From Eledone cirrhosa (taxonomy: Eukaryota): a DNA stretch of 64,000 bases. Both the position numbers and the translations under genes were made by a program. The stretch covers positions 70,494,001 to 70,558,000 of the forward strand of contig OZ024741.1 in assembly GCA_964016885.1 (NCBI GenBank), given 5' to 3'. The stretch's first letter is position 1. Each line of letters starts with the position of its first letter. The notes beneath the pieces are model-generated. The model was not told the DNA's origin. It saw only the letters and a program-made list of their open reading frames with translations, and made no database searches. Shown piece by piece: positions 5,776 through 39,315 of the stretch.

Positions 5776-6708
5776 ATGATGGCTGCCCCCTCGTTATCGA
5801 GTATGGCCATTGCACGATATACCATTATTAATAATTATTAATTAATTCTATCGTGCAATGTCTGTGCGTGAATATATTTTTTAAAGTGAGGAAAGACTGC
5901 ACTGAGCCAATCCCACTCTCTGAGCGACAGTAGCTATAACCCGAAAAGAAGAAAAGATAAACATCATCGGTAGCTACTGAGCTGCAGGTTTTATATCGGA
6001 GCTATCCCAGTTTCCTGAGTTGCCTTCTCCTAGAAGAATGCCCTGACAAAGGCTAGGGGTCCTTCACTCCCAGTGGTTTAACCGCGCGATCGGGTGTCCA
6101 GCCCGACTATTTCTATGTCCCCGCGCATATACATACACATGCACCCATGCACCCATGCATATACACATACACATACATATGTACATGTGTATATACATAT
6201 TTAGACACTTTGGGATGGCCGTTGACTCTTATGAGTTCTTCACATACATACAGATAGACAGACATATATGGGTAAATAAAGAGTTTAAATAGAAAGATAT
6301 ATAGAACTATAGTGAGAGAGATAGAGAGAGAAAAAATGTATAAGAGCCTTCTCGTTGGGCGGGTTGGGAGGACGGGGGAGAGGTAGGTTGACGTAAAACT
6401 TGCGGCTCCTAATTTGGCGCTTCAAAAGAAGAAAAAGAAGAAGAGTTTATTGTACATTTTACTACTTCCCTCCCACTACATTTGTTTTCCTTCTTCGTTA
6501 TAGTAAAGTAAGCTCCTGCTGTAAAAGTAAGGTGGACAGTAAGTAGACTCGTCCAATCAGCCACCAGTAACACTTAAAGTATTGCTAGAGCAGTGAGTGT
6601 AACATTCTAAAGTAGTATCTCTCCCCTCGTAAACTAAAAATCCACTTCAGCTACTGCCAAAAAAAAAAAAATCGCCTAACAAATATATATGTGGAGGAGG
6701 GGATAGTA

Positions 6709-7137
6709 ATGGCAAGGCCAAAAGGTAAATGCTCCCTACGGAATATCGATATTCAGGTGACATTAACTAATGTCATTTTTATGCTACTGACCGGCTTGGC
6801 TTGTTTTATCGATGGCCAGGTATTACAACCACCTTATTTAAATTTGGCTGAAAGAAAAACGGTGCAAGCTTCTTCCACATGCGGAGATGGCGACAATATA
6901 CCCGAAATGTATTGCCGTTTGACCGGAGTTACACCTATTAATCATGACAACTTGGTTATCCAGCCCCACACCGAAATTCAAGCCGGACAATTTTGCGAAT
7001 ATTGTGATTCAGCCATTAAAGGAGAGTCCCACCCGGCTAAATATGCTGTAGACGGCACTGAAAACTGGTGGCAGAGTCCACCCTTGTCCAGGGGTATTGA
7101 ATACAATCAAGTCAACTTTACCGTAGATTTGGGTCAG
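6709..7137 (+). CDS. LanA: Laminin subunit alpha (alpha-3/5, LanA-like), first coding exon: signal peptide and start of the laminin N-terminal (LN) domain
   Basis: ATG at 6709; hydrophobic signal-like segment, then LQPPYLNLAE...ASSTCG...MYCRLTG...GQFCEYC...HPAKYAVDGTENWWQSPPLSRGIEYNQVNFTVDLGQ, matching the LAMA5/LAMA3/LanA LN domain as I recall it; ends at a phase-0 donor CAG|GTGAGA (GT at 7138). Confidence 0.92.
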
Positions 7138-7674
7138 GTGAGATAATTTTAATACTTTTATTTTAGTGTGTGTGTGTGTGTGTTTACATATGTATGTGTT
7201 GTATTTAATGAATGTAAAAGGTACACCTTATTAATTTTATACTTTTATGTGTATGCATATATGCAATGTACGCATATATTATATATGTATGCATGCTTGC
7301 ATGTACGTATGTATGTATATATGTATGTACGTATGCATGTACGTATGTGTGTGTATATATATGTACGTATGCATGTATGTATGTATGTATGCATGTATGT
7401 ATGTATGTATGCATGTATGTATGTATGTATGTATGTATGCATGTATGTATATATATATGTATGTACGTATGTATGTATATGTACGTATGTATGTGTGTGT
7501 ATGTACGTATGTGTGTATGTATTTATATATGTATGTACGTATGTGTGTGTTTGTATACACACCTACACACCCATGATTATGTATCTGTGTAACAATCATA
7601 TACAGTTAAATACATTTGTCTGTCTGTTTGCCCACATGTTTACGTATCTGATCCCTTTTGTGGATGCAACTATT

Positions 7675-9101: not shown

Positions 9102-9150
9102 ATAAGTATGTATACGTACATACATATATGTATACAGACGTACAGTAGTA

Positions 9151-9236
<86 letters not shown>

Positions 9237-9750
9237 CATGCACACATATATATATGTACGTATGGATTCACCGAACATTTATTATAATGCTCGGTGTGTT
9301 TGTAAACAAACATCCCGAATTAAGCCGTACAGTGTCTAGCAACCATCGTTGCTCGTTTGTTCAACACTGACAACTAGTGTCAAGCTTATTAGCTATCGTC
9401 AGCAACGTATACCTTCCTTCCAGATTATTGAACGTATATACTTTCCTTATGCATATTAACGGCTGAGCAGCCTAATTTGCATATCGAGTGAGTTAATCGG
9501 CCGGGGTACCGAAAACGATAAACGGAAAAAATGAAACGAAATTTCATTTCTCACTCTTAGTACGGCTGTTACTTAAATATAAGTATGTATACATACATAC
9601 ATATATGTATACAGACGTACAGTAGTATGCATATATATATATATATATACATACATGCACACACATATATATGTATGTATGGATTCTCCGAACATTTATT
9701 ATAATGCTCGGTGTGTTTGTAAACAAACATCCCGAATTAAGCCGTACAAT
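9102..9750 (-). mobile_element. Diverged ~1.4-mer of the 472-bp retrozyme family
   Basis: Reverse-complement similarity to the array monomer (gtatacagacgtacagtag, ttataat..tgtttgtaaacaaac, agcagcctaatttgcatat, atttcatttctcactcttagta); period ~478; hammerhead remnant ctgacga-tagctaataagctt-gaca-ctag on - strand at ~9373-9408. Confidence 0.85.
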
Positions 9751-12725: not shown

Positions 12726-14496
12726 AATATATAAACAACCACCTGGTTGTGGAACCAACCAACCAACCGAAAATTTATAAATTCCTAAATTTATAAATTC
12801 CTAAATTTATAAATTTATTATAATAAATTAAAGTGAAAGCAACTGGTGCGTGTGTTTCTTATTGGCAACATGACCCTCCCAAAGTATAACAATATCGGTT
12901 TCAACACACGTTTTCAGATAAAGAATCTTGCTAAACAAATTCAGAAACGAAATATCGTAAGCCTTAGCCAGGCTAACAAGATACTGAAAACCACCATGTT
13001 CTGTTGTCTACGAAAAACAATAACATCTCGACAACTACACTTCATAAAAGAATGTGCCTCGTCCCGAGTTTACACCAACACCATCAACACCGATGTAAGA
13101 AGATTACAACTCACCAAAAAGCAAGCAGATAGGCTAAAACGAACACTAATTCTAAACATAAAAAAGAAGATTTATAGAGAATTAAGTCATCAAGAAAAAC
13201 ATTAACGTAACCTAATACAAGAAATAACTAAGATCACCACACCAAGAGAAAAACTAATATTTATAAACCTTATATGTCCTGAAGAACAGTACATTGTTCA
13301 AGAATGTGACAAGCACTTTAACAAGAAACTAAAGTGGCTCAAACAGATAAAACTAAATCAAGATACTTTAGAGAATATCAATAGATATCCCGACAAAATT
13401 GACGGTATAAATATGGCCGACATCTCATTAACAGATGAATTCAACAACAATAACACAAATATATACGGCAACACTACGGTCGACTCTGATGAATTATCTG
13501 TATTACAACTGCCGCCTAAGTATGCCACATATAACAAGGTAAATATGATTAAATGCTTGTCAGAAATAGAAAAATCATTTATAAAATTACGCTGGAGCCT
13601 CAAAAACAAAAACAAAAGTAACAACATACGCACACACACACACATATACAACACACATCCCAACAACAACAGACACACAGACACAAACAACAATAACAAC
13701 AACACACACATCAACAATAATAACATACTCAGAAACAACAACAACAGACACGCAGACACAAACAACAATAACAACACAACAACAATAATAACACACACGG
13801 AGACAACAACAACAACACACATCAACAACAGCACACATCAACAACAACAACACACACACACATTCAATGCCTCTCACCACCACCACAATCTTAACAAACA
13901 CACAGACACAGAAAACAGGTAATGACAGTAGCACAGAAATAAGGGAAGGTAATAGGATTGAAAGGAAAAGGGAGACTATGGACAGAGTAAATAACCAAGA
14001 CGAACACACAGACACACAAAATAGAGTAGATAATAACAATGAGCCAGAGGAAAGAGACAGGAGTAATAATGAGAGACAGAAACAACCATGAGGCTGTTGG
14101 TGGAAATAGAAATAGAAACAACACAACTAACAATAACAATAGCACTAGTACACATAAAGCAGCAGCCTGGAACTCTACTTTTTATAATCCCTCCGATAAG
14201 TCGTTCGACCTGCGACGAGTCCACGCCACGACTTTACCATTTAACAAACGCACGCAATTGCCGTCGCAGGTCGATGAACAATCAGAAGCACAATTTAGTA
14301 TAGCTAGATCTAAACTTAAAAATATTATAGAACAGTATAGCAAGAAACATAATAAAATGGAGGCCCAGCAACTGGGAGAAAAATCTGCAAATGACAGTCT
14401 GCCAAACTACATCAAGGCAATGCAACCCCACATCACTAACACAGAGAAGTAACACCACAAGAGCATGAGGATAGAGAAAAAGCCCTCAATGCCCAT

Positions 14497-16570
14497 ATGA
14501 TGATGTGGACAAATATAATGCAGCCCAACAAAAGGACTGCCAACAACTTCCAGGCCTGGAACAATGACGTGCCAGCGTTGTATGGGCTTCGAAAAGACCA
14601 TAAAACGAGCAGTGACCCTGTCACAGGACCACCAACACGGCCAGTCTGTGGAGCTAACATTGCTAGTAACTACAGACTGTCCTACTTCCTCTCCCTGATC
14701 ATACGCCCCATCATTGAAATGTCCCCAGATGTATGTGACAGCACGGAGGACCTCCTCAGCAGAATCGGCGAGAGTAACCGATCTAGGGACCTAACAAACT
14801 GCATAATAAGTAGTATGGATGTTGTGTCCCTATATCCATCTATTGACGTGGATTTTGCTGTGGAGAAATGCGTAGAAATGATCAGTGAGAGCAATGTTGA
14901 ATTCCATGGGATTGATACCAGTGAGCTGGGACTCCTACTTAAACTTACCTATAGTAATAATTATCTAGACACATATGACCTTAGCAACCTGTGCCCTACA
15001 AGACCAGCAAGAAGCAGACCACCTACCATTACCTCAATGGCCAAGAAAACCCACACAGATAGATGGAACGGGTGGACCAGAGCCATACAGACCCCCTAAA
15101 ACCACGATGAACTAAAGAAAATGATTGCACATGCGGTGGGGGCCAGCATAAAATTAACCCTTAAGGAACATATGTTCAAATTTAATGGAAACACATATGC
15201 CCAAGAGGAGGGAGCAGCTATTGGTGTTAGCATTGCAGGCGACATAGCTAACCTATTTATGGTATGGTGGGACAGTAGACTTAAACTTAAAGAACAATTA
15301 GAAGACCCCTTAACCCTGATAATGTACACCCGCTACGTTGGTGATATAAACATCGTAGTTAAAACACCCCCACTAGAGAACAGTCAAGAATTAGAGAAAA
15401 ACACAATGGAAAGCATCCAGCAAATAGCTAACTCCATCCACCAGAGTATTAGAGTTACTATAGACTACCCAAGCAAACACCCCAACCATCGATTACCTGT
15501 ACTAGACACAGAGCTCTGGTTAGATACCATTAATAACAGGACGGAAAATTGGCAGTATCGGTAGAGGGGCGGACGCCATGCTTTCTAGCATAGTTACGTC
15601 CCTTTACTATCTGAGTTCAAATCCCGCCGAGGTTGACTTTGCCTTTCATCCTTACGAGGTCGATAAAATAAAGTACCAGTAATACACTGGGTAATTGCTG
15701 GCCTTGTGCCTAAAGTAGAAACAATTAATAACAAAAAACAAATCCTCCATTCCCATTATGCCAAATCCATGACTTCCAAATATCTGATCCACCGAAACTC
15801 AGCCGTTTCGGACCATACCAAAATCAACATACTGATTGCGGATTTGGTACGGGTGATGAGAAACGTGTCCCGCATGTGCAACCCCGAAGAACTACAGAGA
15901 CACATACAACACTTCATCCACCGTATGCAGTTCTCTGGTTACAATCAGAGATATAAAATCAGAGTGTATAGAGGAGCCAGAACCAAATGGGAAAAAATGG
16001 TAAATAATGACACAAATGGGACCTGCCCCTTGTATAGGAGCAAATTTTGGAATAGAATAGAAAGAACTAGGAATAAGGCTAATAGAATAAACTCATGGTA
16101 TGATAGCAATAAATACCAGTGTAATGTTCATCGATACAACCCCTAGAGGTGAATTAGCTTACAAATTTAGAAGGACCCTAGATAAACATAAACTCAATAT
16201 TAAGATAGTAGAAAGACCATGTACCTCCATAAAAACACTTATTAGCAAGTCATACCCCTTTGAAATACCTCCCTGTATAGATAAGAAATGTATAATCTGT
16301 AAATTAAGCACCCATATTAACTGTAAAACTAGAAATGTAGTATATAGCATAAGATATACTGAAGGACAATGTAGAGATAAAAATATAGTGTACATAGGTG
16401 AGACAGCTCGTAGTATAGGGGAACGGATAAATGAACACTGGCGAGACCTTCAAGATAGTAAAGAATCATCTGTACTCTACCAACATACTAAAATAGAACA
16501 TAAGGGTAAATTAGAGAACATAGAAATAAAAATAGAATCTACACACAGAAAAGACGTAATGTTTAGATAA
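14497..16570 (+). pseudogene. Penelope-like RT and GIY-YIG coding region, frameshifted and interrupted by a SINE
   Basis: ORFs 14497-15099, 15121-15564, 15706-16146 and 16100-16570; catalytic YVDD reads YVGD. Confidence 0.88.
15539..15733 (+). mobile_element. tRNA-derived SINE inserted in the Penelope-like RT, with 10-bp TSD
   Basis: attaataaca at 15529-15538 and 15724-15733; removing it joins LWLDTINN to KKQILHSHY. Confidence 0.9.
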
Positions 16571-16805
16571 ATCACAGAGTGGAACAGCAACATCACAACC
16601 TACAATTAAGGACAAAATGAAAACACACATAGAACAAACAACCAACCACTAACATGTAAATAAACAAATAAATAAACGAATATAAACACACACAGACACC
16701 CGGATGTAACACATGCGCAAACTAAGCACACAACACACACACAAAAACAAGATGGCGTAGGACAGAACAAAGGAGAGGCACAAAAAACAAAGAAAAGAAT
16801 CCCCA

Positions 16806-16848
16806 GTCACTGAAGAGGTCACAGAATATGTGACGAAAGAACTTTGAC
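16806..16848 (+). ncRNA. Minimal type I hammerhead in the 3' Penelope terminal repeat
   Basis: gtca-CTGAAGA-ggtcacagaatatgtgac-GAAA-gaac-TT-tgac. Confidence 0.75.
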
Positions 16849-17075
16849 AATATATAAACAACCACCTGGTTGTGGAACCAACCAACCAACCGAAAATTTA
16901 TAAATTCCTAAATTTATAAATTTATTATAATAAATTGAAGTGAAAGCAACTGGTGCGTGAGTTTCTTATTGGCAACATGACCCTCCCAAAGTATAACAAT
17001 GTCGGTTTCAACATACGTTTTCAGATAAAGAATTTTGCTAAACAAATTCAGAAACGAAATGTATATATATATATA

Positions 17076-19668: not shown

Positions 19669-20149
19669 GTAATTAGGAGTATTCCAAAGCTTGGTAGAAC
19701 AAGTTGTGAGGAAAGTTCTCAACATACGTTAAGGTGACTCGACAGGTTGGTAGGGATTCAGTAGTGGAAACACGAACAAACAAGGAGTGTAATCAAAGAA
19801 GAGAAATAGGACGAAGGTAAACAGTTACAAAAGAATTTAATCCACGTATTAACAATTGTTTCATCAGAATTTCAGTCCATTATTGCTACACTATGTTATA
19901 ATAGGCAATCAAGAAAGATACTGTAGCATCCGAATTTTCCAAATACAAAGTTGGAATGACCTTAGGAAATGAAATAAGGGGTAGTAGTGTAAGATAGAGG
20001 AACAGAGAGAGAGAGAGAGGGGAAAAAGAGAGGGAGAGAGAGAGAGAGAGAGAGAGAAAAGTGATGGAGGTAGGGAGAGAAAGAGATAGGGTGGTGTGAG
20101 AGGATTTGTATAGAATATAGTTGGTATATATATATATATATATATATAA

Positions 20150-20513
20150 ACGGAAAAAATGAAACGAAATTTCATTTCCCACTCTTAGTACGGCTGTTAC
20201 TTATATATAAGTATGTACACGTACATACATATATGTATACAGACGTACAGTAGTATGCATACATATATACATACATGCACACACATATATATGTGCGTAT
20301 AATAGCTAATAAGCTTGAAACTAGTACAGCGTTCCTTTGTCGGTGTTGAACAAACGAGCAACGATGGTTGCTGGTCACTACGGCTTAATACGGGATGTTT
20401 GTTTACAAACACACCGAGCATTATAATAAATGTTTGGTGAATACATACGCACATATATATATGTGTGCATGTATGTATATATGTATGCATACTACTGTAC
20501 GTCTGTATACATA
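20150..20513. mobile_element. Truncated, diverged copy of the retrozyme family with an inverted 5' part
   Basis: 20150-20298 is in reverse orientation; 20299-20513 is forward and begins atagctaataagcttgaaactagtacagcgttcc (3' half of the hammerhead). Confidence 0.85.
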
Positions 20514-20798
20514 TTAGTCTACGACTTCTTTTATACCATAAACGTGGCTCTGTCTTTGCGCGTAATTATTTTTCTCCGCTCCTATTAATGACGTATTATA
20601 TTCGTTTTTTCCCAGCGAACGTTTCCACGAACCAAAGTATCGTCTTCCTGTCTTCCTCCGGTTGCAACGTTTTTTGAAATATCCACTTCTGCGTTTACAG
20701 ATTGACTTTGTTAGTTTCAGAAGATCCCGTTAAGGTGAAAGCAGCGATTCTTTGCTTAAACTTTAATCTGTTATTTTAATAAATATATATATATATAT

Positions 20799-27739: not shown

Positions 27740-30700
27740 TAGTGAAGGTGGAGCCTTCAGGCTGGTGGCCGCATATTCCCCATCCGGGACACCGCGGCCA
27801 GGCTTCTTCAAACGTCTAGAGACTTTTCTGGGAACGTCCCGCTCCTTGCTTTTAGTGGGGGACTGGAATGGAATCCTAGATGCACGTTGGGACTATGTGG
27901 AAGCATGTCCCAATAAGGGGGGGGGTGTAACAGTCTCAAACAGTTAATCGGCCGATTTCGACTAGATTTTCCGACTGTGCCACTGTGGACGTGGACTAAT
28001 TCCAGCGGAACATTTAGATCGTACCGAGATAGGGTTCTAATTAGAAATAAAGATAGGGACATGTTAAGCAGTCCACAAATGTTCATGGTTGCCTATTCAG
28101 ATCACAAACTAGTGTCCTGCATGGTCAACCTTGATAGAACAAATAGACAAGGACCCGGCTACTGGAAGCTGAACTTGTCGTTACCGACATGCAAAGCCTA
28201 CAGTAGACGGATTAGCACTTTAGTTAAACAGCACTTGACAGGGACCATTGTCAACAACAGATGGTGGTACTCTCTCAAGAGGGCAGTTAGATTAGACTCG
28301 TTAGTTTTTAGTAAAGAATTATCTTTAAATAGAAATAGGACCGAGAAGGAACTGATAGATAAAGTAGAAGAGGCAATTAGAAGTGGCAACGTAGCCAGCG
28401 TGCTAGCAACGAGAACGGCCTTGGACCAGTTCTTCGACGCAAAACACGAGGGCTGCGTTGTCAGAAGCAAAATACGTGCTCTGGTAACGAGGGAGCCAAA
28501 GCTGTTAGCTGGGCCCGGACGGGGAGGCGAAGTTCTTCGAAAAGCCGATTTCAGCCGCTGAGATAGGGGGCTCGCTGAGCCAATGCGGCAAACGCAAATC
28601 TCCAGGTCTCGACGGTCTACCCTACGAATTTTACGTAGCAATGCCGGACTTGTTCTCCGGTCTCCTGGAAGCGATTTACTGCAACTGGCAGCAGAATGGG
28701 AGAATTCCCAGTTCTGTGACCAGGAGCGTAGTCACAGTAGTCAGGAAGGACGAGAATAAGGGGGATGACATAGGCAACCTCCGGCCCATAACTCTGCTAA
28801 ACACAGAGTTACAGATTTTGGCCAAGGTGTTGGCAAAGAGGCTGGCGCTTGTCGTCGAAAACCTGGTGAGAGAAGCGCAGACATGCGCAATCCCGACCAG
28901 GTCCATACACGACAACCTCCTCCTCATGCGATATATCATAGAGAGGGTAGGGTGTAAACCCGGCTTCGGTGGGGCCCTGATCAACTTGGATCAGTCTAAG
29001 GTTTTCGATAGGGTTGACCATCGTTACCTGGATGCGGTGATTGAGGCGGCAGGCTTCGGACCTGTGTTCAGGGGCTGGATTGCTGTAATGCACAACAGCA
29101 ACATCTGCTCAAGGGTCAAGGTGAACGGTTACCTCTCGGAGCCGTTCCATATCACGCGATCCATCCGACAGGGATGCCCTCTCTCCTCTCTTCTGTACGT
29201 ACTGACTCTCGAGCCACTACTGCTGAAGTTGGACCTATTGCAGGGCATCCCTCTAGAACCGGGACTGCAGAAAGCGGCGTCGGCCTACGTCGACGACGTG
29301 ACAGTAATGGTGTCGAGCACCTCGCAAATCGAGGAAGTTGGCACCTTACTGAAGGAATACGAAAGGTTCACAGGAGCAAAGCTGAACCAGGACAAGTCCG
29401 TCGGTTTGCAACTCGGATCGTGGAGAGGCAAACCGGTGCCTTCGATGGCGTCGTCGGACGCTGGACGGAAGGACCGGTAAAGCTGCTCGGGGTCTGGTTT
29501 GGTTCTGACCTCCAGGTGGAGAAAAACTGGAACGAGGTGACGGCCAAGGTGTTTGCACTCACCCAGAAGAGGGCCGAGTGCAAACTATCCTTGAAAGGTC
29601 GAGCAGAGGTGGCGAACACTTTTATAGCGTCCGTCATCTACTACCGCTTGACCGTCGTGCCTTGTCCAGCCAAAACGCTCACCAAAATGGAGTGTGCACT
29701 CTTCTAATTCCTTTGGAAGAAGCGGGCTCCTTTGGTGAGAAGATCCATCTGCTGCCAACACCCTTCCAACGGAGGGCTGGGGATGCCGTGGCTGACGATG
29801 CGCAAACACGCGCTCAGGCTGCGGCATCTCTACGTATTCCTCACCGAACAACCGGTGTGGGCCCCGTTCGTGAGGCGAGCCTTCCCACGGCTCGTCTCGG
29901 TGACCGACCTGCAGTCCTGGGTCAAGCAAAGACCAAGGAAAATGGGCGACTTGCACATCGAATGTGCTCAGGCGCTCACAGCCCTCTGGCGGGCGGACCC
30001 GGCGATCAGTGGAGACTCCACTTTGTCATTCTATAGAGGGTTGATTCGCAGCAAGTGCGACGACGCGCTCGGAGAAACTCTAGGGGTAGAGGAAGACAAC
30101 TGGCCAGTCTGTTCGATAGGACCTTCCGCCCGGGACCGATGGACAACTTCCAAAAGTTCCTGGCCTGGCGGTGCTACCGAAGAGCTCTACTAGTTCGAGA
30201 CAAGCTCTATAGACATGGGCGCCCGGGCAGGGACCCTTCGAAAAAGATCTGCCCGAGATGCGTGCGAGACGAAGAAACCGTCGCGCACGCATTCATACAC
30301 TGCCCGGGCGTTATCGACCTGTGGGGCTATGTAGAACGACTATTGTCGCGGGTGGGACCAATCCGGTTGACCACCGAATCCATTGTCATGATCAAACCAC
30401 CACCCTCCTTCAAAAACGAAGGAGAGGCGGTTTTCTTTTTGTGATAGCTATGGCGAAAGAGGTTGTATGGTGGACGAGGTTAAAAGGGCTGAGGTCAGAC
30501 ACCTTTCTCTCCGACCAACAACTGATTCTTTTTTTCAAATACCACTTTGGAAGAAGAATCAGGATGGAGAGAGAGGTGCTGTACCCCAGCAAGTTTTATG
30601 AAAGGTGGGTGAAAGTGGCGAGAATGGCCCGAGTGAATGGGCCTTCTCTCTATATCAGACTGTAGGTTGAGGAAAAGGAGGAAGAGAGAAAAGGGGTACA

Positions 30701-32338: not shown

Positions 32339-32689
32339 TGCACACACACACACACACACGCATGCACACACACACACACACACATATACACACATACACA
32401 CACACATACACACACATTTTGTGTGGGGGTGTATTGCATTTACATATACCCAAATTATTATAAATGTGTGTATGAATGAACTATGCATGAAATATACATG
32501 TATATTACATCATATATAGGCGTTTTTACATATATATTTAATGTATATATATGTATGTAATACTCTGTATATATGATATAATATGCACTATATGTATAAT
32601 ATATATGTATGTATAATATAATGTATATATAATATATATGTATATATAATATATATGTATATATAATATATATATATATATATTAGAGA

Positions 32690-32800
32690 TTTGGATTCAC
32701 AATCTTGAGGTTCTGTGTTCGATTCCTGGACCGGGCGATGCGTTATGTCCTTGAGCAAGACACTTTATTTCACGTTGCTCCTTCTACCTGGAGTTGCGAC
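32690..32800 (+). mobile_element. Fragment of a second tRNA-derived SINE family (CORE-like)
   Basis: gttcgattcc B-box then tgtccttgagcaagacactttatttcacgttgctcc; related copy on - strand at ~58850-59180. Confidence 0.65.
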
Positions 32801-32962
32801 AGGTAGATAGTACTAGCAATTGGAAAGACCAACGGAAACATTGTTTACTCGGTCCGATTTGACGAAAGTCGATCGATATATATATATATATAATATATAT
32901 TTAATATATATATACATAGATATGTATATAAGTATATATATACATGGATATGTATATATATA

Positions 32963-33118
32963 TAAGTATGCATGTATACGTACATACATATATGTATACA
33001 GACGTACAGTAGCATGCACATATATATATATATATACATATATACATACATATGCATACAGGTACACATACATATATGCACGTATCAGTTTAGCGGCGCT
33101 TATTATAACGTCGCTTTG
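32963..33118 (-). repeat. Inverted partial monomer at the 5' end of the array
   Basis: Reverse complement of ~33296-33451 (caaagcgacgttataataagcgccgctaaactgatacgtgc...catgcatactta). Confidence 0.92.
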
Positions 33119-33162
33119 GAAAGTATATACTTTCGAACGTTCAACTATCTGGCAGATGGGTA

Positions 33163-33207
33163 AACGGTGCTGATGATAGCTAACAAGCTTGAAACTAGTA
33201 CATCGTT
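33163..33207 (+). ncRNA. Type I hammerhead ribozyme, copy 1 of 13 (others start at 33635, 34107, 34579, 35051, 35523, 35995, 36467, 36939, 37411, 37883, 38355, 38827)
   Basis: aacggtg-CTGATGA-tagct aaca agctt-GAAA-ctag-TA-catcgtt; 7-bp stem I with one GU, stem II agct/agct, palindromic stem III actagt, predicted cleavage after GUA (33200). Confidence 0.9.
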
Positions 33208-36200
33208 CCTGTGTCAGTGTTGAACAAAAAGGTGACGTGGTTGCCTTAACACCGTATGGCATAAATTCAGGCTGTTCAGTTTGTTTACAAACGAACAAAG
33301 CGACGTTATAATAAGCGCCGCTAAACTGATACGTGCATATATGTATGTGTACCTGTATGCATATGTATGTATATATGTATATATATATATATATGTGCAT
33401 GCTACTGTACGTCTGTATACATATATGTATGTACGTATACATGCATACTTACATTTAAGTAAGTGCCATACTAAGAGTGAGAAATGAAATTTCGTTTTCA
33501 TTTTGTTTCAATTTATCGTTTTCGGTATGCCTGACCGATTTAACTCACTCAATATGCAAATTAGGCTGCTCAGCCGTTAATTTTCATAAGGAAAGTATAT
33601 ACTTTCGAACGTTCAACTATCTGGCAGATGGGTAAACGGTGCTGATGATAGCTAACAAGCTTGAAACTAGTACATCGTTCCTGTGTCAGTGTTGAACAAA
33701 AAGGTGACGTGGTTGCCTTAACACCGTATGGCATAAATTCAGGCTGTTCAGTTTGTTTACAAACGAACAAAGCGACGTTATAATAAGCGCCGCTAAACTG
33801 ATACGTGCATATATGTATGTGTACCTGTATGCATATGTATGTATATATGTATATATATATATATATGTGCATGCTACTGTACGTCTGTATACATATATGT
33901 ATGTACGTATACATGCATACTTACATTTAAGTAAGTGCCATACTAAGAGTGAGAAATGAAATTTCGTTTTCATTTTGTTTCAATTTATCGTTTTCGGTAT
34001 GCCTGACCGATTTAACTCACTCAATATGCAAATTAGGCTGCTCAGCCGTTAATTTTCATAAGGAAAGTATATACTTTCGAACGTTCAACTATCTGGCAGA
34101 TGGGTAAACGGTGCTGATGATAGCTAACAAGCTTGAAACTAGTACATCGTTCCTGTGTCAGTGTTGAACAAAAAGGTGACGTGGTTGCCTTAACACCGTA
34201 TGGCATAAATTCAGGCTGTTCAGTTTGTTTACAAACGAACAAAGCGACGTTATAATAAGCGCCGCTAAACTGATACGTGCATATATGTATGTGTACCTGT
34301 ATGCATATGTATGTATATATGTATATATATATATATATGTGCATGCTACTGTACGTCTGTATACATATATGTATGTACGTATACATGCATACTTACATTT
34401 AAGTAAGTGCCATACTAAGAGTGAGAAATGAAATTTCGTTTTCATTTTGTTTCAATTTATCGTTTTCGGTATGCCTGACCGATTTAACTCACTCAATATG
34501 CAAATTAGGCTGCTCAGCCGTTAATTTTCATAAGGAAAGTATATACTTTCGAACGTTCAACTATCTGGCAGATGGGTAAACGGTGCTGATGATAGCTAAC
34601 AAGCTTGAAACTAGTACATCGTTCCTGTGTCAGTGTTGAACAAAAAGGTGACGTGGTTGCCTTAACACCGTATGGCATAAATTCAGGCTGTTCAGTTTGT
34701 TTACAAACGAACAAAGCGACGTTATAATAAGCGCCGCTAAACTGATACGTGCATATATGTATGTGTACCTGTATGCATATGTATGTATATATGTATATAT
34801 ATATATATATGTGCATGCTACTGTACGTCTGTATACATATATGTATGTACGTATACATGCATACTTACATTTAAGTAAGTGCCATACTAAGAGTGAGAAA
34901 TGAAATTTCGTTTTCATTTTGTTTCAATTTATCGTTTTCGGTATGCCTGACCGATTTAACTCACTCAATATGCAAATTAGGCTGCTCAGCCGTTAATTTT
35001 CATAAGGAAAGTATATACTTTCGAACGTTCAACTATCTGGCAGATGGGTAAACGGTGCTGATGATAGCTAACAAGCTTGAAACTAGTACATCGTTCCTGT
35101 GTCAGTGTTGAACAAAAAGGTGACGTGGTTGCCTTAACACCGTATGGCATAAATTCAGGCTGTTCAGTTTGTTTACAAACGAACAAAGCGACGTTATAAT
35201 AAGCGCCGCTAAACTGATACGTGCATATATGTATGTGTACCTGTATGCATATGTATGTATATATGTATATATATATATATATGTGCATGCTACTGTACGT
35301 CTGTATACATATATGTATGTACGTATACATGCATACTTACATTTAAGTAAGTGCCATACTAAGAGTGAGAAATGAAATTTCGTTTTCATTTTGTTTCAAT
35401 TTATCGTTTTCGGTATGCCTGACCGATTTAACTCACTCAATATGCAAATTAGGCTGCTCAGCCGTTAATTTTCATAAGGAAAGTATATACTTTCGAACGT
35501 TCAACTATCTGGCAGATGGGTAAACGGTGCTGATGATAGCTAACAAGCTTGAAACTAGTACATCGTTCCTGTGTCAGTGTTGAACAAAAAGGTGACGTGG
35601 TTGCCTTAACACCGTATGGCATAAATTCAGGCTGTTCAGTTTGTTTACAAACGAACAAAGCGACGTTATAATAAGCGCCGCTAAACTGATACGTGCATAT
35701 ATGTATGTGTACCTGTATGCATATGTATGTATATATGTATATATATATATATATGTGCATGCTACTGTACGTCTGTATACATATATGTATGTACGTATAC
35801 ATGCATACTTACATTTAAGTAAGTGCCATACTAAGAGTGAGAAATGAAATTTCGTTTTCATTTTGTTTCAATTTATCGTTTTCGGTATGCCTGACCGATT
35901 TAACTCACTCAATATGCAAATTAGGCTGCTCAGCCGTTAATTTTCATAAGGAAAGTATATACTTTCGAACGTTCAACTATCTGGCAGATGGGTAAACGGT
36001 GCTGATGATAGCTAACAAGCTTGAAACTAGTACATCGTTCCTGTGTCAGTGTTGAACAAAAAGGTGACGTGGTTGCCTTAACACCGTATGGCATAAATTC
36101 AGGCTGTTCAGTTTGTTTACAAACGAACAAAGCGACGTTATAATAAGCGCCGCTAAACTGATACGTGCATATATGTATGTGTACCTGTATGCATATGTAT

Positions 36201-38826
36201 GTATATATGTATATATATATATATATGTGCATGCTACTGTACGTCTGTATACATATATGTATGTACGTATACATGCATACTTACATTTAAGTAAGTGCCA
36301 TACTAAGAGTGAGAAATGAAATTTCGTTTTCATTTTGTTTCAATTTATCGTTTTCGGTATGCCTGACCGATTTAACTCACTCAATATGCAAATTAGGCTG
36401 CTCAGCCGTTAATTTTCATAAGGAAAGTATATACTTTCGAACGTTCAACTATCTGGCAGATGGGTAAACGGTGCTGATGATAGCTAACAAGCTTGAAACT
36501 AGTACATCGTTCCTGTGTCAGTGTTGAACAAAAAGGTGACGTGGTTGCCTTAACACCGTATGGCATAAATTCAGGCTGTTCAGTTTGTTTACAAACGAAC
36601 AAAGCGACGTTATAATAAGCGCCGCTAAACTGATACGTGCATATATGTATGTGTACCTGTATGCATATGTATGTATATATGTATATATATATATATATGT
36701 GCATGCTACTGTACGTCTGTATACATATATGTATGTACGTATACATGCATACTTACATTTAAGTAAGTGCCATACTAAGAGTGAGAAATGAAATTTCGTT
36801 TTCATTTTGTTTCAATTTATCGTTTTCGGTATGCCTGACCGATTTAACTCACTCAATATGCAAATTAGGCTGCTCAGCCGTTAATTTTCATAAGGAAAGT
36901 ATATACTTTCGAACGTTCAACTATCTGGCAGATGGGTAAACGGTGCTGATGATAGCTAACAAGCTTGAAACTAGTACATCGTTCCTGTGTCAGTGTTGAA
37001 CAAAAAGGTGACGTGGTTGCCTTAACACCGTATGGCATAAATTCAGGCTGTTCAGTTTGTTTACAAACGAACAAAGCGACGTTATAATAAGCGCCGCTAA
37101 ACTGATACGTGCATATATGTATGTGTACCTGTATGCATATGTATGTATATATGTATATATATATATATATGTGCATGCTACTGTACGTCTGTATACATAT
37201 ATGTATGTACGTATACATGCATACTTACATTTAAGTAAGTGCCATACTAAGAGTGAGAAATGAAATTTCGTTTTCATTTTGTTTCAATTTATCGTTTTCG
37301 GTATGCCTGACCGATTTAACTCACTCAATATGCAAATTAGGCTGCTCAGCCGTTAATTTTCATAAGGAAAGTATATACTTTCGAACGTTCAACTATCTGG
37401 CAGATGGGTAAACGGTGCTGATGATAGCTAACAAGCTTGAAACTAGTACATCGTTCCTGTGTCAGTGTTGAACAAAAAGGTGACGTGGTTGCCTTAACAC
37501 CGTATGGCATAAATTCAGGCTGTTCAGTTTGTTTACAAACGAACAAAGCGACGTTATAATAAGCGCCGCTAAACTGATACGTGCATATATGTATGTGTAC
37601 CTGTATGCATATGTATGTATATATGTATATATATATATATATGTGCATGCTACTGTACGTCTGTATACATATATGTATGTACGTATACATGCATACTTAC
37701 ATTTAAGTAAGTGCCATACTAAGAGTGAGAAATGAAATTTCGTTTTCATTTTGTTTCAATTTATCGTTTTCGGTATGCCTGACCGATTTAACTCACTCAA
37801 TATGCAAATTAGGCTGCTCAGCCGTTAATTTTCATAAGGAAAGTATATACTTTCGAACGTTCAACTATCTGGCAGATGGGTAAACGGTGCTGATGATAGC
37901 TAACAAGCTTGAAACTAGTACATCGTTCCTGTGTCAGTGTTGAACAAAAAGGTGACGTGGTTGCCTTAACACCGTATGGCATAAATTCAGGCTGTTCAGT
38001 TTGTTTACAAACGAACAAAGCGACGTTATAATAAGCGCCGCTAAACTGATACGTGCATATATGTATGTGTACCTGTATGCATATGTATGTATATATGTAT
38101 ATATATATATATATGTGCATGCTACTGTACGTCTGTATACATATATGTATGTACGTATACATGCATACTTACATTTAAGTAAGTGCCATACTAAGAGTGA
38201 GAAATGAAATTTCGTTTTCATTTTGTTTCAATTTATCGTTTTCGGTATGCCTGACCGATTTAACTCACTCAATATGCAAATTAGGCTGCTCAGCCGTTAA
38301 TTTTCATAAGGAAAGTATATACTTTCGAACGTTCAACTATCTGGCAGATGGGTAAACGGTGCTGATGATAGCTAACAAGCTTGAAACTAGTACATCGTTC
38401 CTGTGTCAGTGTTGAACAAAAAGGTGACGTGGTTGCCTTAACACCGTATGGCATAAATTCAGGCTGTTCAGTTTGTTTACAAACGAACAAAGCGACGTTA
38501 TAATAAGCGCCGCTAAACTGATACGTGCATATATGTATGTGTACCTGTATGCATATGTATGTATATATGTATATATATATATATATGTGCATGCTACTGT
38601 ACGTCTGTATACATATATGTATGTACGTATACATGCATACTTACATTTAAGTAAGTGCCATACTAAGAGTGAGAAATGAAATTTCGTTTTCATTTTGTTT
38701 CAATTTATCGTTTTCGGTATGCCTGACCGATTTAACTCACTCAATATGCAAATTAGGCTGCTCAGCCGTTAATTTTCATAAGGAAAGTATATACTTTCGA
38801 ACGTTCAACTATCTGGCAGATGGGTA

Positions 38827-38871
38827 AACGGTGCTGATGATAGCTAACAAGCTTGAAACTAGTACATCGTT
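38827..38871 (+). ncRNA. Type I hammerhead ribozyme, last (13th) copy in the array
   Basis: Same sequence as 33163-33207. Confidence 0.9.
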
Positions 38872-39174
38872 CCTGTGTCAGTGTTGAACAAAAAGGTGAC
38901 GTGGTTGCCTTAACACCGTATGGCATAAATTCAGGCTGTTCAGTTTGTTTACAAACGAACAAAGCGACGTTATAATAAGCGCCGCTAAACTGATACGTGC
39001 ATATATGTATGTGTACCTGTATGCATATGTATGTATATATGTATATATATATATATATGTGCATGCTACTGTACGTCTGTATACATATATGTATGTACGT
39101 ATACATGCATACTTACATTTAAGTAAGTGCCATACTAAGAGTGAGAAATGAAATTTCGTTTTCATTTTGTTTCA

Positions 39175-39230
<56 letters not shown>

Positions 39231-39315
39231 GGATATGTATATAAGTATATATATATAATGTATGTATATATATATACGTTTACATGTATATATATGATGT
39301 ATATGTACATATGTA

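Follow-up and report, generated by a model that had tools for sequence, protein, structure and literature searches.

Non-LTR retrozymes have been described as non-coding tandem units, each some hundreds of bp long, with a GC content below 45% and a type I hammerhead (PMC7229834), and the derivation of their tandems from reverse transcription of circular RNA has been published as a hypothesis (PMC7229834, PMC4209133). In the available text of the retrozyme papers, mobilization by Penelope-like elements (PLEs) and tandems derived from circular RNA are proposed without junction evidence, and a 2026 preprint puts forward local amplification instead; the words "tail," "junction," and "inversion" are absent from the available portion of that preprint (10.64898/2026.07.22.740005). 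A search by titles and the beginnings of abstracts, outside of which most subscription papers lay, found no analysis of retrozyme insertion junctions, and supplements may hold junction figures. As far as the accessible sections of the PLE papers describe them, PLEs leave inverted 5′ copies and a tail at one end, and insert at (TA)n targets (PMC8557442), while a PLE protein studied in purified form cleaves AT-rich DNA on both strands, extends each of them, and uses two internal reverse transcription starts, which give rise to a genomic tail (PMC11167929).

The window analyzed here is a 64,000-nucleotide stretch of the Eledone cirrhosa genome (assembly GCA_964016885.1, contig OZ024741.1, positions 70,494,001 to 70,558,000). 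Repeat analysis revealed a direct array of 6,063 bp, made of 12.85 copies of a 472-bp unit with 0 mismatches and preceded by a 156-bp exact reverse complement of part of the unit (Table 1; positions within the unit carry the prefix u). The inverted piece and the first direct unit overlap by one base, at 33118. The first-pass annotation of this DNA had described an inverted piece of the monomer joined to a 5′-truncated first unit, as well as a motif lying on both sides of the array. Both descriptions proved accurate: the inverted piece matches u179-334 exactly, and the motif, a 23-mer at 32936 and 39221 that occurs nowhere else in the window, extends to 26 bp. A hammerhead motif in the unit and a family of more than 10,000 copies are new relative to that annotation. 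With 0 changes over 6,219 bases, divergence between the locus and its template is below about 5 × 10⁻⁴. As a copy of an abundant, hammerhead-bearing mobile element, the array is thus very young, and the insertion may be polymorphic among individuals. The locus is otherwise an ordinary family member in the long tail of the length distribution, in which three of 139 arms reach 6 kb. Its haplotype is the common 472-bp type, of which a 97-nt diagnostic stretch has 325 exact copies in the genome; since it carries no private variant, its own template is unreadable from the locus.

Table 1. Features of the array and its flanks (positions are those of the window)
Feature	Position	Strand	Basis or remark
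Pre-existing degenerate 28-bp unit of the target microsatellite	32912..32939	+	One base differs from 39225-39252; period 28
Left copy of the 26-bp duplication (probable target-site duplication)	32933..32958	+	Core motif 14 times in the genome
Inverted arm, u179-334; likely second cDNA from the 330-340 start site	32963..33118	-	Exact match
Direct arm with 12.85 copies of the 472-bp unit, all identical; ends at u399	33118..39180	+	Repeat analysis; 867 genomic ends there, followed by (TA)4
Type I hammerhead motif of unit 1, recurring every 472 bp; predicted cut after 33200	33163..33207	+	Motif, weak Rfam match
59-nt "tail" between the two inferred reverse transcription start sites, u341-399 (unit 1 shown)	33458..33516	+	End distributions
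37 extra (TA)n bases separating the element from the right-hand duplication copy	39181..39217	+	Possibly added at priming or by later slippage
Right copy of the 26-bp duplication	39218..39243	+	Sequence match

Other features were noted in the same window. A broken LINE-type reverse transcriptase with a zf-RVT domain lies at 28509-30441 (+), and a non-repetitive island at 32684-32875, in the left flank of the array, presumably resembles a fragment of a tRNA-derived SINE. An exon-like frame at 6616-7143 (+) encodes a Laminin N-terminal domain (E 2.7e-18); no further exon of this gene was located, and the array may lie within one of its introns.

The 472-bp unit has a GC content of about 36%. No ORF contained entirely in the array reaches 120 aa, and the element has no ORF with a reverse transcriptase (RT) and a GIY-YIG endonuclease, which makes it non-autonomous. 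At u46-90 the unit carries a hammerhead motif with a 7-bp helix I, a CUGAUGA core, a 3-bp helix II, a GAAA, and a palindromic 6-nt helix III, and the cut is predicted after u83; core, helices I to III, and palindrome are present in all units. Comparison with Rfam gave a weak match of the motif to HH9 (18.5 bits vs. a gathering score of 52, E 0.14). The region folded better than 198 of 200 shuffles, and a two-sided change in helix I was found in three of 43 distinct motif variants. The pair that closes helix II is U-U and the usual G-C is absent, so that the predicted ribozyme activity is uncertain. The top Rfam matches of the unit were miRNA families on its TA-rich part; all scored below their gathering thresholds and were rejected. 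A pattern search with a 36-base piece of the hammerhead recovered 10,391 exact copies in the genome. On the strength of a type I hammerhead in every unit and of this copy number, the unit falls, judged by its sequence, into a known class, the non-LTR retrozymes, of which it is a new member.

Family elements are dispersed and range from less than one unit to about 41 units. Two samples of them were analyzed, and their junctions, whose comparison had been suggested as a check in the first-pass annotation, proved stereotyped: in 133 other elements the arms ended at u399 or at u330-340, in both cases against (TA)n. The first sample was drawn from the first 100 hammerhead matches listed, which gave 51 loci and 53 elements after pieces below 250 bp and one element cut by the edge were dropped. 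Its 26 inverted elements comprised 20 with the end combination 340/399, two with 340/340, four with 399 and another position, and none with 399/399, and its 27 plain elements ended at 399 (17), at 340 (8), or elsewhere (2). In a young subfamily, 867 copies of the u399 site are ends followed by (TA)4, and 4,788 copies of the same site are internal. The second sample, chosen for the 399 end, took 80 of 100 listed ends of this kind, leaving out seven already sampled and the last 13. A script parsed 76 of them (63 inverted, 12 plain, and one complex) and BLAST the other four (two inverted and two plain), so that 65 of 80 were inverted. The outer end of the inverted arm fell at u330-340 in 54 of 61 young copies, those cut by the edge excluded, and never at 390-400. 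The two arms thus almost always begin at different start sites, separated by a tail of 59-65 nt. This tail folded no better than shuffles (z -1.35), which leaves a structural cause of the two starts without support.

Arm lengths in the second sample, censored by the 9.9-kb fetch, had medians of 446 and 472 bases. Both arms exceeded one unit in 17 of 63 young inverted copies, and the two lengths were uncorrelated (rho 0.14, p 0.27). Unit length was locus-specific and mostly equal in both arms. At the head-to-head joint the arms overlapped by 0-6 bases in 45 of 63 copies and by 14-16 bases in three, and unmatched bases were present in 15. In five copies (L103, L124, L128, L115, and L145) both arms were joined at the same unit position as a perfect fold-back, three of them with the 14-16-base overlap. 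The longest elements seen included a two-armed one of at least 19 kb, with both arms above 17 units (L158 and L225; G000:C1 about 292770300-292789450), and an element of 19.5 kb and about 41 units that shows both of the stereotyped ends, a candidate donor locus (L212-L214; G000:C2:140616100-140635620). Older family copies, 70-88% identical, occur in the window itself at 9147-9668 (-) and 20146-20514; the latter is two-armed and also ends at u399 against (TA)n.

The perfect identity of the units could suggest that copy number or identity is an assembly artefact caused by a collapsed or inflated consensus. We consider this very improbable, because other arrays in the same assembly retain SNPs and indels of single units, and because raw reads from another sample contain opposite-strand joints at varied positions. 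These reads stem from a different sample of the species, sequenced by RAD-seq, and 89,603 of them covered part of the unit. Among 15 joints shown, 13 were of the opposite-strand kind, mostly with no more than one or two read starts each; library chimeras may account for some. Accumulations of loose read ends at two AATT sites in this run were put down to cutting during library preparation and not to biology. A contig from a third sample enters TA at u399. Near-identical pieces of the unit were also contained in sequencing runs under two other organism labels.

The two fixed ends, one to each arm and never 399/399, are the "tail" signature of Penelope and indicate that the inverted piece is likely a second cDNA, primed at the other target end. 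The match with the purified PLE protein, for which two starts, a tail, and extension of both strands are described in the available text (PMC11167929), leads to the same two-cDNA reading. That a Penelope-type insertion defines both ends of the array, as first proposed, is thus borne out by the two fixed end positions, the inverted truncated copy, and the (TA)n target. The proposal of one cDNA with an inverted 5′ segment has to be revised to two cDNAs, which are likely since the inverted arm has a fixed start of its own (54 of 61 copies) and is many units long elsewhere. We are highly confident that the array is the product of a single two-ended insertion of the Penelope type. In L1 twin priming an inverted 5′ segment also arises from a second primer, provided by the other target strand, together with microhomology at the joint and a target-site duplication, and the second primer anneals near the point at which the first cDNA stopped. 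In contrast to L1, the second start in the family studied here lies at a fixed site regardless of first-arm length, and the inverted arm can span many units.

A further claim concerned the flanks, where a candidate target-site duplication (TSD) had been pointed out. The 26-bp duplication is set off from the element by four TA bases on the left and by 37 on the right. Its 23-mer core occurs 14 times in the 3.0-Gb assembly, two of them at this locus, and is so rare that the pair at both array ends is not due to chance. The target DNA is itself a degenerate 28-bp tandem, with one base of difference between its left-hand unit and the right-hand copy, and four of the 12 remaining genomic matches of the 23-mer occur as close pairs. 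These two observations make it possible that the duplication is older than the insertion. On balance it is probably a true TSD, a reading that we prefer without holding it to be secure. In non-LTR retrozymes a TSD, where one exists, would be expected to exceed 4 bp; family-wide tests were less informative. A position-free test on 54 elements gave no excess over swapped flanks. In a positional test, 10 of 73 elements passed, this locus included, vs. 64 of 5,256 swapped pairs, a control that is unfair in that periodic flanks match anyway; without this locus the figures were nine of 72 young elements vs. 1.2% of swapped flanks, and those passing were mostly periodic microsatellites. On inspection, two of the 10 (L108 and L152) were boundary errors. 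Among the matches listed, inspection also showed several family copies with short TA runs in which the nearby unique flank was not duplicated, so that long TSDs are not obligatory in the family. A (TA)n run of at least 10 bases adjoined 50 of 62 unselected ends of the 340 type, this locus counted. Five elements (L034, L125, L130, L031, and L058) had inverted copies of 25-45 flanking bases at or near their ends, which may point to nicked (TA)n ends that snapped back or else to other elements.

Variants shared between arms were then used as a record of the origin of the arrays. Arms of 55 inverted loci, this one included, were trimmed to the 3,000 bases nearest the start, with u200-345 masked. 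All 14 variants fixed in one multi-copy arm were present in the other arm of the same locus (8 sites at 7 loci), vs. 8 of 944 comparisons (0.8%) with arms of other loci. Sites with at least three copies comprised eight fixed, 36 singleton, and four partly shared variants. In 16 loci of the first sample, divergence within arms (189/20,689, 0.91%) equaled that between arms (153/17,442, 0.88%). Breakpoints lay within 4 nt of the hammerhead cut in three of 138 cases, vs. 2.7 expected, in 249 passes. From the variants shared between arms, and from breakpoints that ignore the cut site, we conclude that for the most part the arrays arose as multimers copied from a single RNA. The lack of a pile-up at the cut also argues against cut linear monomers as the usual template, unless jumps between them were seamless.

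We weighed these data against the alternative that a short two-armed insertion was followed by DNA-level growth of its direct arm to 13 units, through unequal exchange or slippage, in the manner of a minisatellite. Copy number of tandem repeats can change faster than point mutations accumulate, so that the 0 mismatches found here are compatible with such growth. The partly shared variants of the 41-unit array, with one SNP in four units and another at period 3, fit local duplication, and local amplification is what the 2026 preprint proposes for retrozymes in its available text (10.64898/2026.07.22.740005). Expansion of DNA would be expected to produce arm-specific or partly shared variants, and these were rare: none of the 14 variants was fixed in one arm only, and singletons outnumbered partly shared variants by 36 to 4. 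Frequent expansion is therefore disfavored. Arms of more than one unit on both sides in 17 of 63 young inverted copies and the mostly equal unit length of the two arms also speak against later growth, which we judge improbable at this locus. The view of the first reading that the array was not a satellite expansion thus agrees with the family as a whole, and this array was quite likely born at about its present length.

If the array is a single two-ended insertion, the following steps could account for it. A tandem copy would be transcribed, cut by paired hammerheads, and circularized, as the motif and the behavior of other retrozymes suggest. A GIY-YIG endonuclease would nick both strands of interrupted (TA)n, about 26-30 nt apart to judge from the duplication. 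One 3′ end would then prime at u399 and the other at u330-340, presumably on short UA-rich microhomology. Both cDNAs stop at random, with no pause at the hammerhead site, here after 6,063 and 156 nt, and their ends are joined head to head, mostly with an overlap of 0-6 nt (1 nt here), with fill-in probably by host repair. For the account taken whole, namely one insertion by a Penelope-type protein and two cDNAs, the long one made in about 13 turns round a 472-nt circular RNA, we would put belief and doubt at equal weight. A monomeric circle, hypothetical as it is, appears to be the likeliest template, and we are about evenly divided on it. More tentatively, a Penelope-type RT dimer might engage a single circular retrozyme RNA through two fixed sites, about 60 nt from each other and each serving one broken chromosome end, and roll round it from both ends simultaneously. 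Satellite-like arrays of 13-40 units would then arise in a single step, with an asymmetry of start sites stricter than in the in vitro results.

An uncleaved multimeric RNA as template would give an identical anatomy. It is conceivable, though in our opinion somewhat unlikely, that the template of the same two-ended insertion was a donor array's long transcript left uncleaved, a multimeric circle, or several RNAs linked through template jumps. Units of more than one type follow each other in order in several arrays: at L085 a SNP in one unit and an 8-bp deletion in the unit after it form a pair that is seen two times in the direct arm and a single time in the inverted one; at L124 two unit types alternate; and at L226 a block of five variant units is followed by plain units. 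Together with the SNPs of the 19.5-kb array already mentioned, such ordered mixtures cannot derive from one monomeric circle, and they imply multimer templates, template switches, or later turnover. Arrays of donor size and of the same 472-bp type do exist, at about 41 units. In addition, cleavage is poor in hammerheads whose helix III is short and palindromic, according to the available text of PMC4209133, and in that of PMC11167929 hammerhead mutants had no effect on PLE insertion in vitro and unprocessed RNA was the dominant substrate of the Anolis PLE. The locus-specific variants fixed in all units and in both arms (8 sites at 7 loci, and L221 too) point the other way, as they require a step from monomer to multimer. 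The array of about 41 units, moreover, contains no current run of 13 units identical to this locus; of the 325 exact matches to the 97-nt stretch, the listing covered 100.

Candidate partners of a non-autonomous element of this kind were found in the same genome. With 10,595 candidates, a GIY-YIG search gave 150 scored matches. An RT was present in open frames of 938 and 1,096 codons, and five of seven tested frames also matched GIY-YIG at the C-terminus. Several PLE families end at (TA)n and have a cysteine motif ahead of the endonuclease, which is also described for Neptune and Nematis in the accessible part of PMC8557442. The unit, if it derives from the terminal repeat (pLTR) of a partner PLE, should resemble that repeat; it showed no similarity to PLE sequences in 50 GIY-YIG loci (of the 150 scored), in the PLE fragment of the window, or in 22 3′ regions, where only separate nearby retrozyme copies were found. 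A short motif common to the unit and one PLE 3′ region was not significant vs. shuffles. The PLE fragment of the window, at about 14030-17060 (+), is broken; it has a GIY-YIG match at 16091-16567, its 3′ region contains a hammerhead-like motif, and it ends at (TA)n. The 3′ regions of L162, L176, and L180 represent other families that insert at (TA)n, seemingly with two alternative ends, and L162 is two-armed; an anatomy with two starts may therefore be of general occurrence in the genome.

The family includes hundreds of very young insertions that bear the two-start signature of PLEs and contain no coding sequence. It offers a small natural substrate of 472 nt with two mapped starts, along with candidate intact RT-endonuclease frames in the same genome, so that open steps of PLE integration and the question of circle vs. 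multimer become directly testable. It also implies that kilobase-sized "satellites" can arise within one generation.

Comparison with described systems was limited to what the accessible portions of the cited papers report. Like non-LTR retrozymes (Cervera and de la Pena, 2020, PMC7229834; Li et al., 2026), the family has thousands of dispersed copies, occurs as dimers up to large multimers, and shares its genome with PLEs. It departs from them in a 472-bp unit slightly above the 150-450 bp given in 2020, and in a hammerhead whose helix II is closed by U-U. The two-armed junction anatomy with two starts is not described for non-LTR retrozymes in the available text of PMC7229834 and 10.64898/2026.07.22.740005. 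With newt satellite 2 and the axolotl retrozymes (PMC7229834) it shares a short palindromic helix III, which would work only as a dimer, although sequence and host differ and the likeness here is one of motif. Like EN+ PLEs (Craig et al., 2021, PMC8557442; Frangieh et al., 2024, PMC11167929), it shows partial tandems, an inverted 5′ copy, an extension at one end, and two internal starts, and, as in those elements, its targets are AT-rich or (TA)n and both strands appear to be extended (PMC8557442, PMC11167929). Unlike them, it lacks coding sequence, has a tail of 59-65 nt vs. 30-40, and forms tandems of 13 to 41 units. Finally, the two arms in this family nearly always use different starts, whereas no strand difference is reported for the Anolis protein in vitro (PMC11167929).
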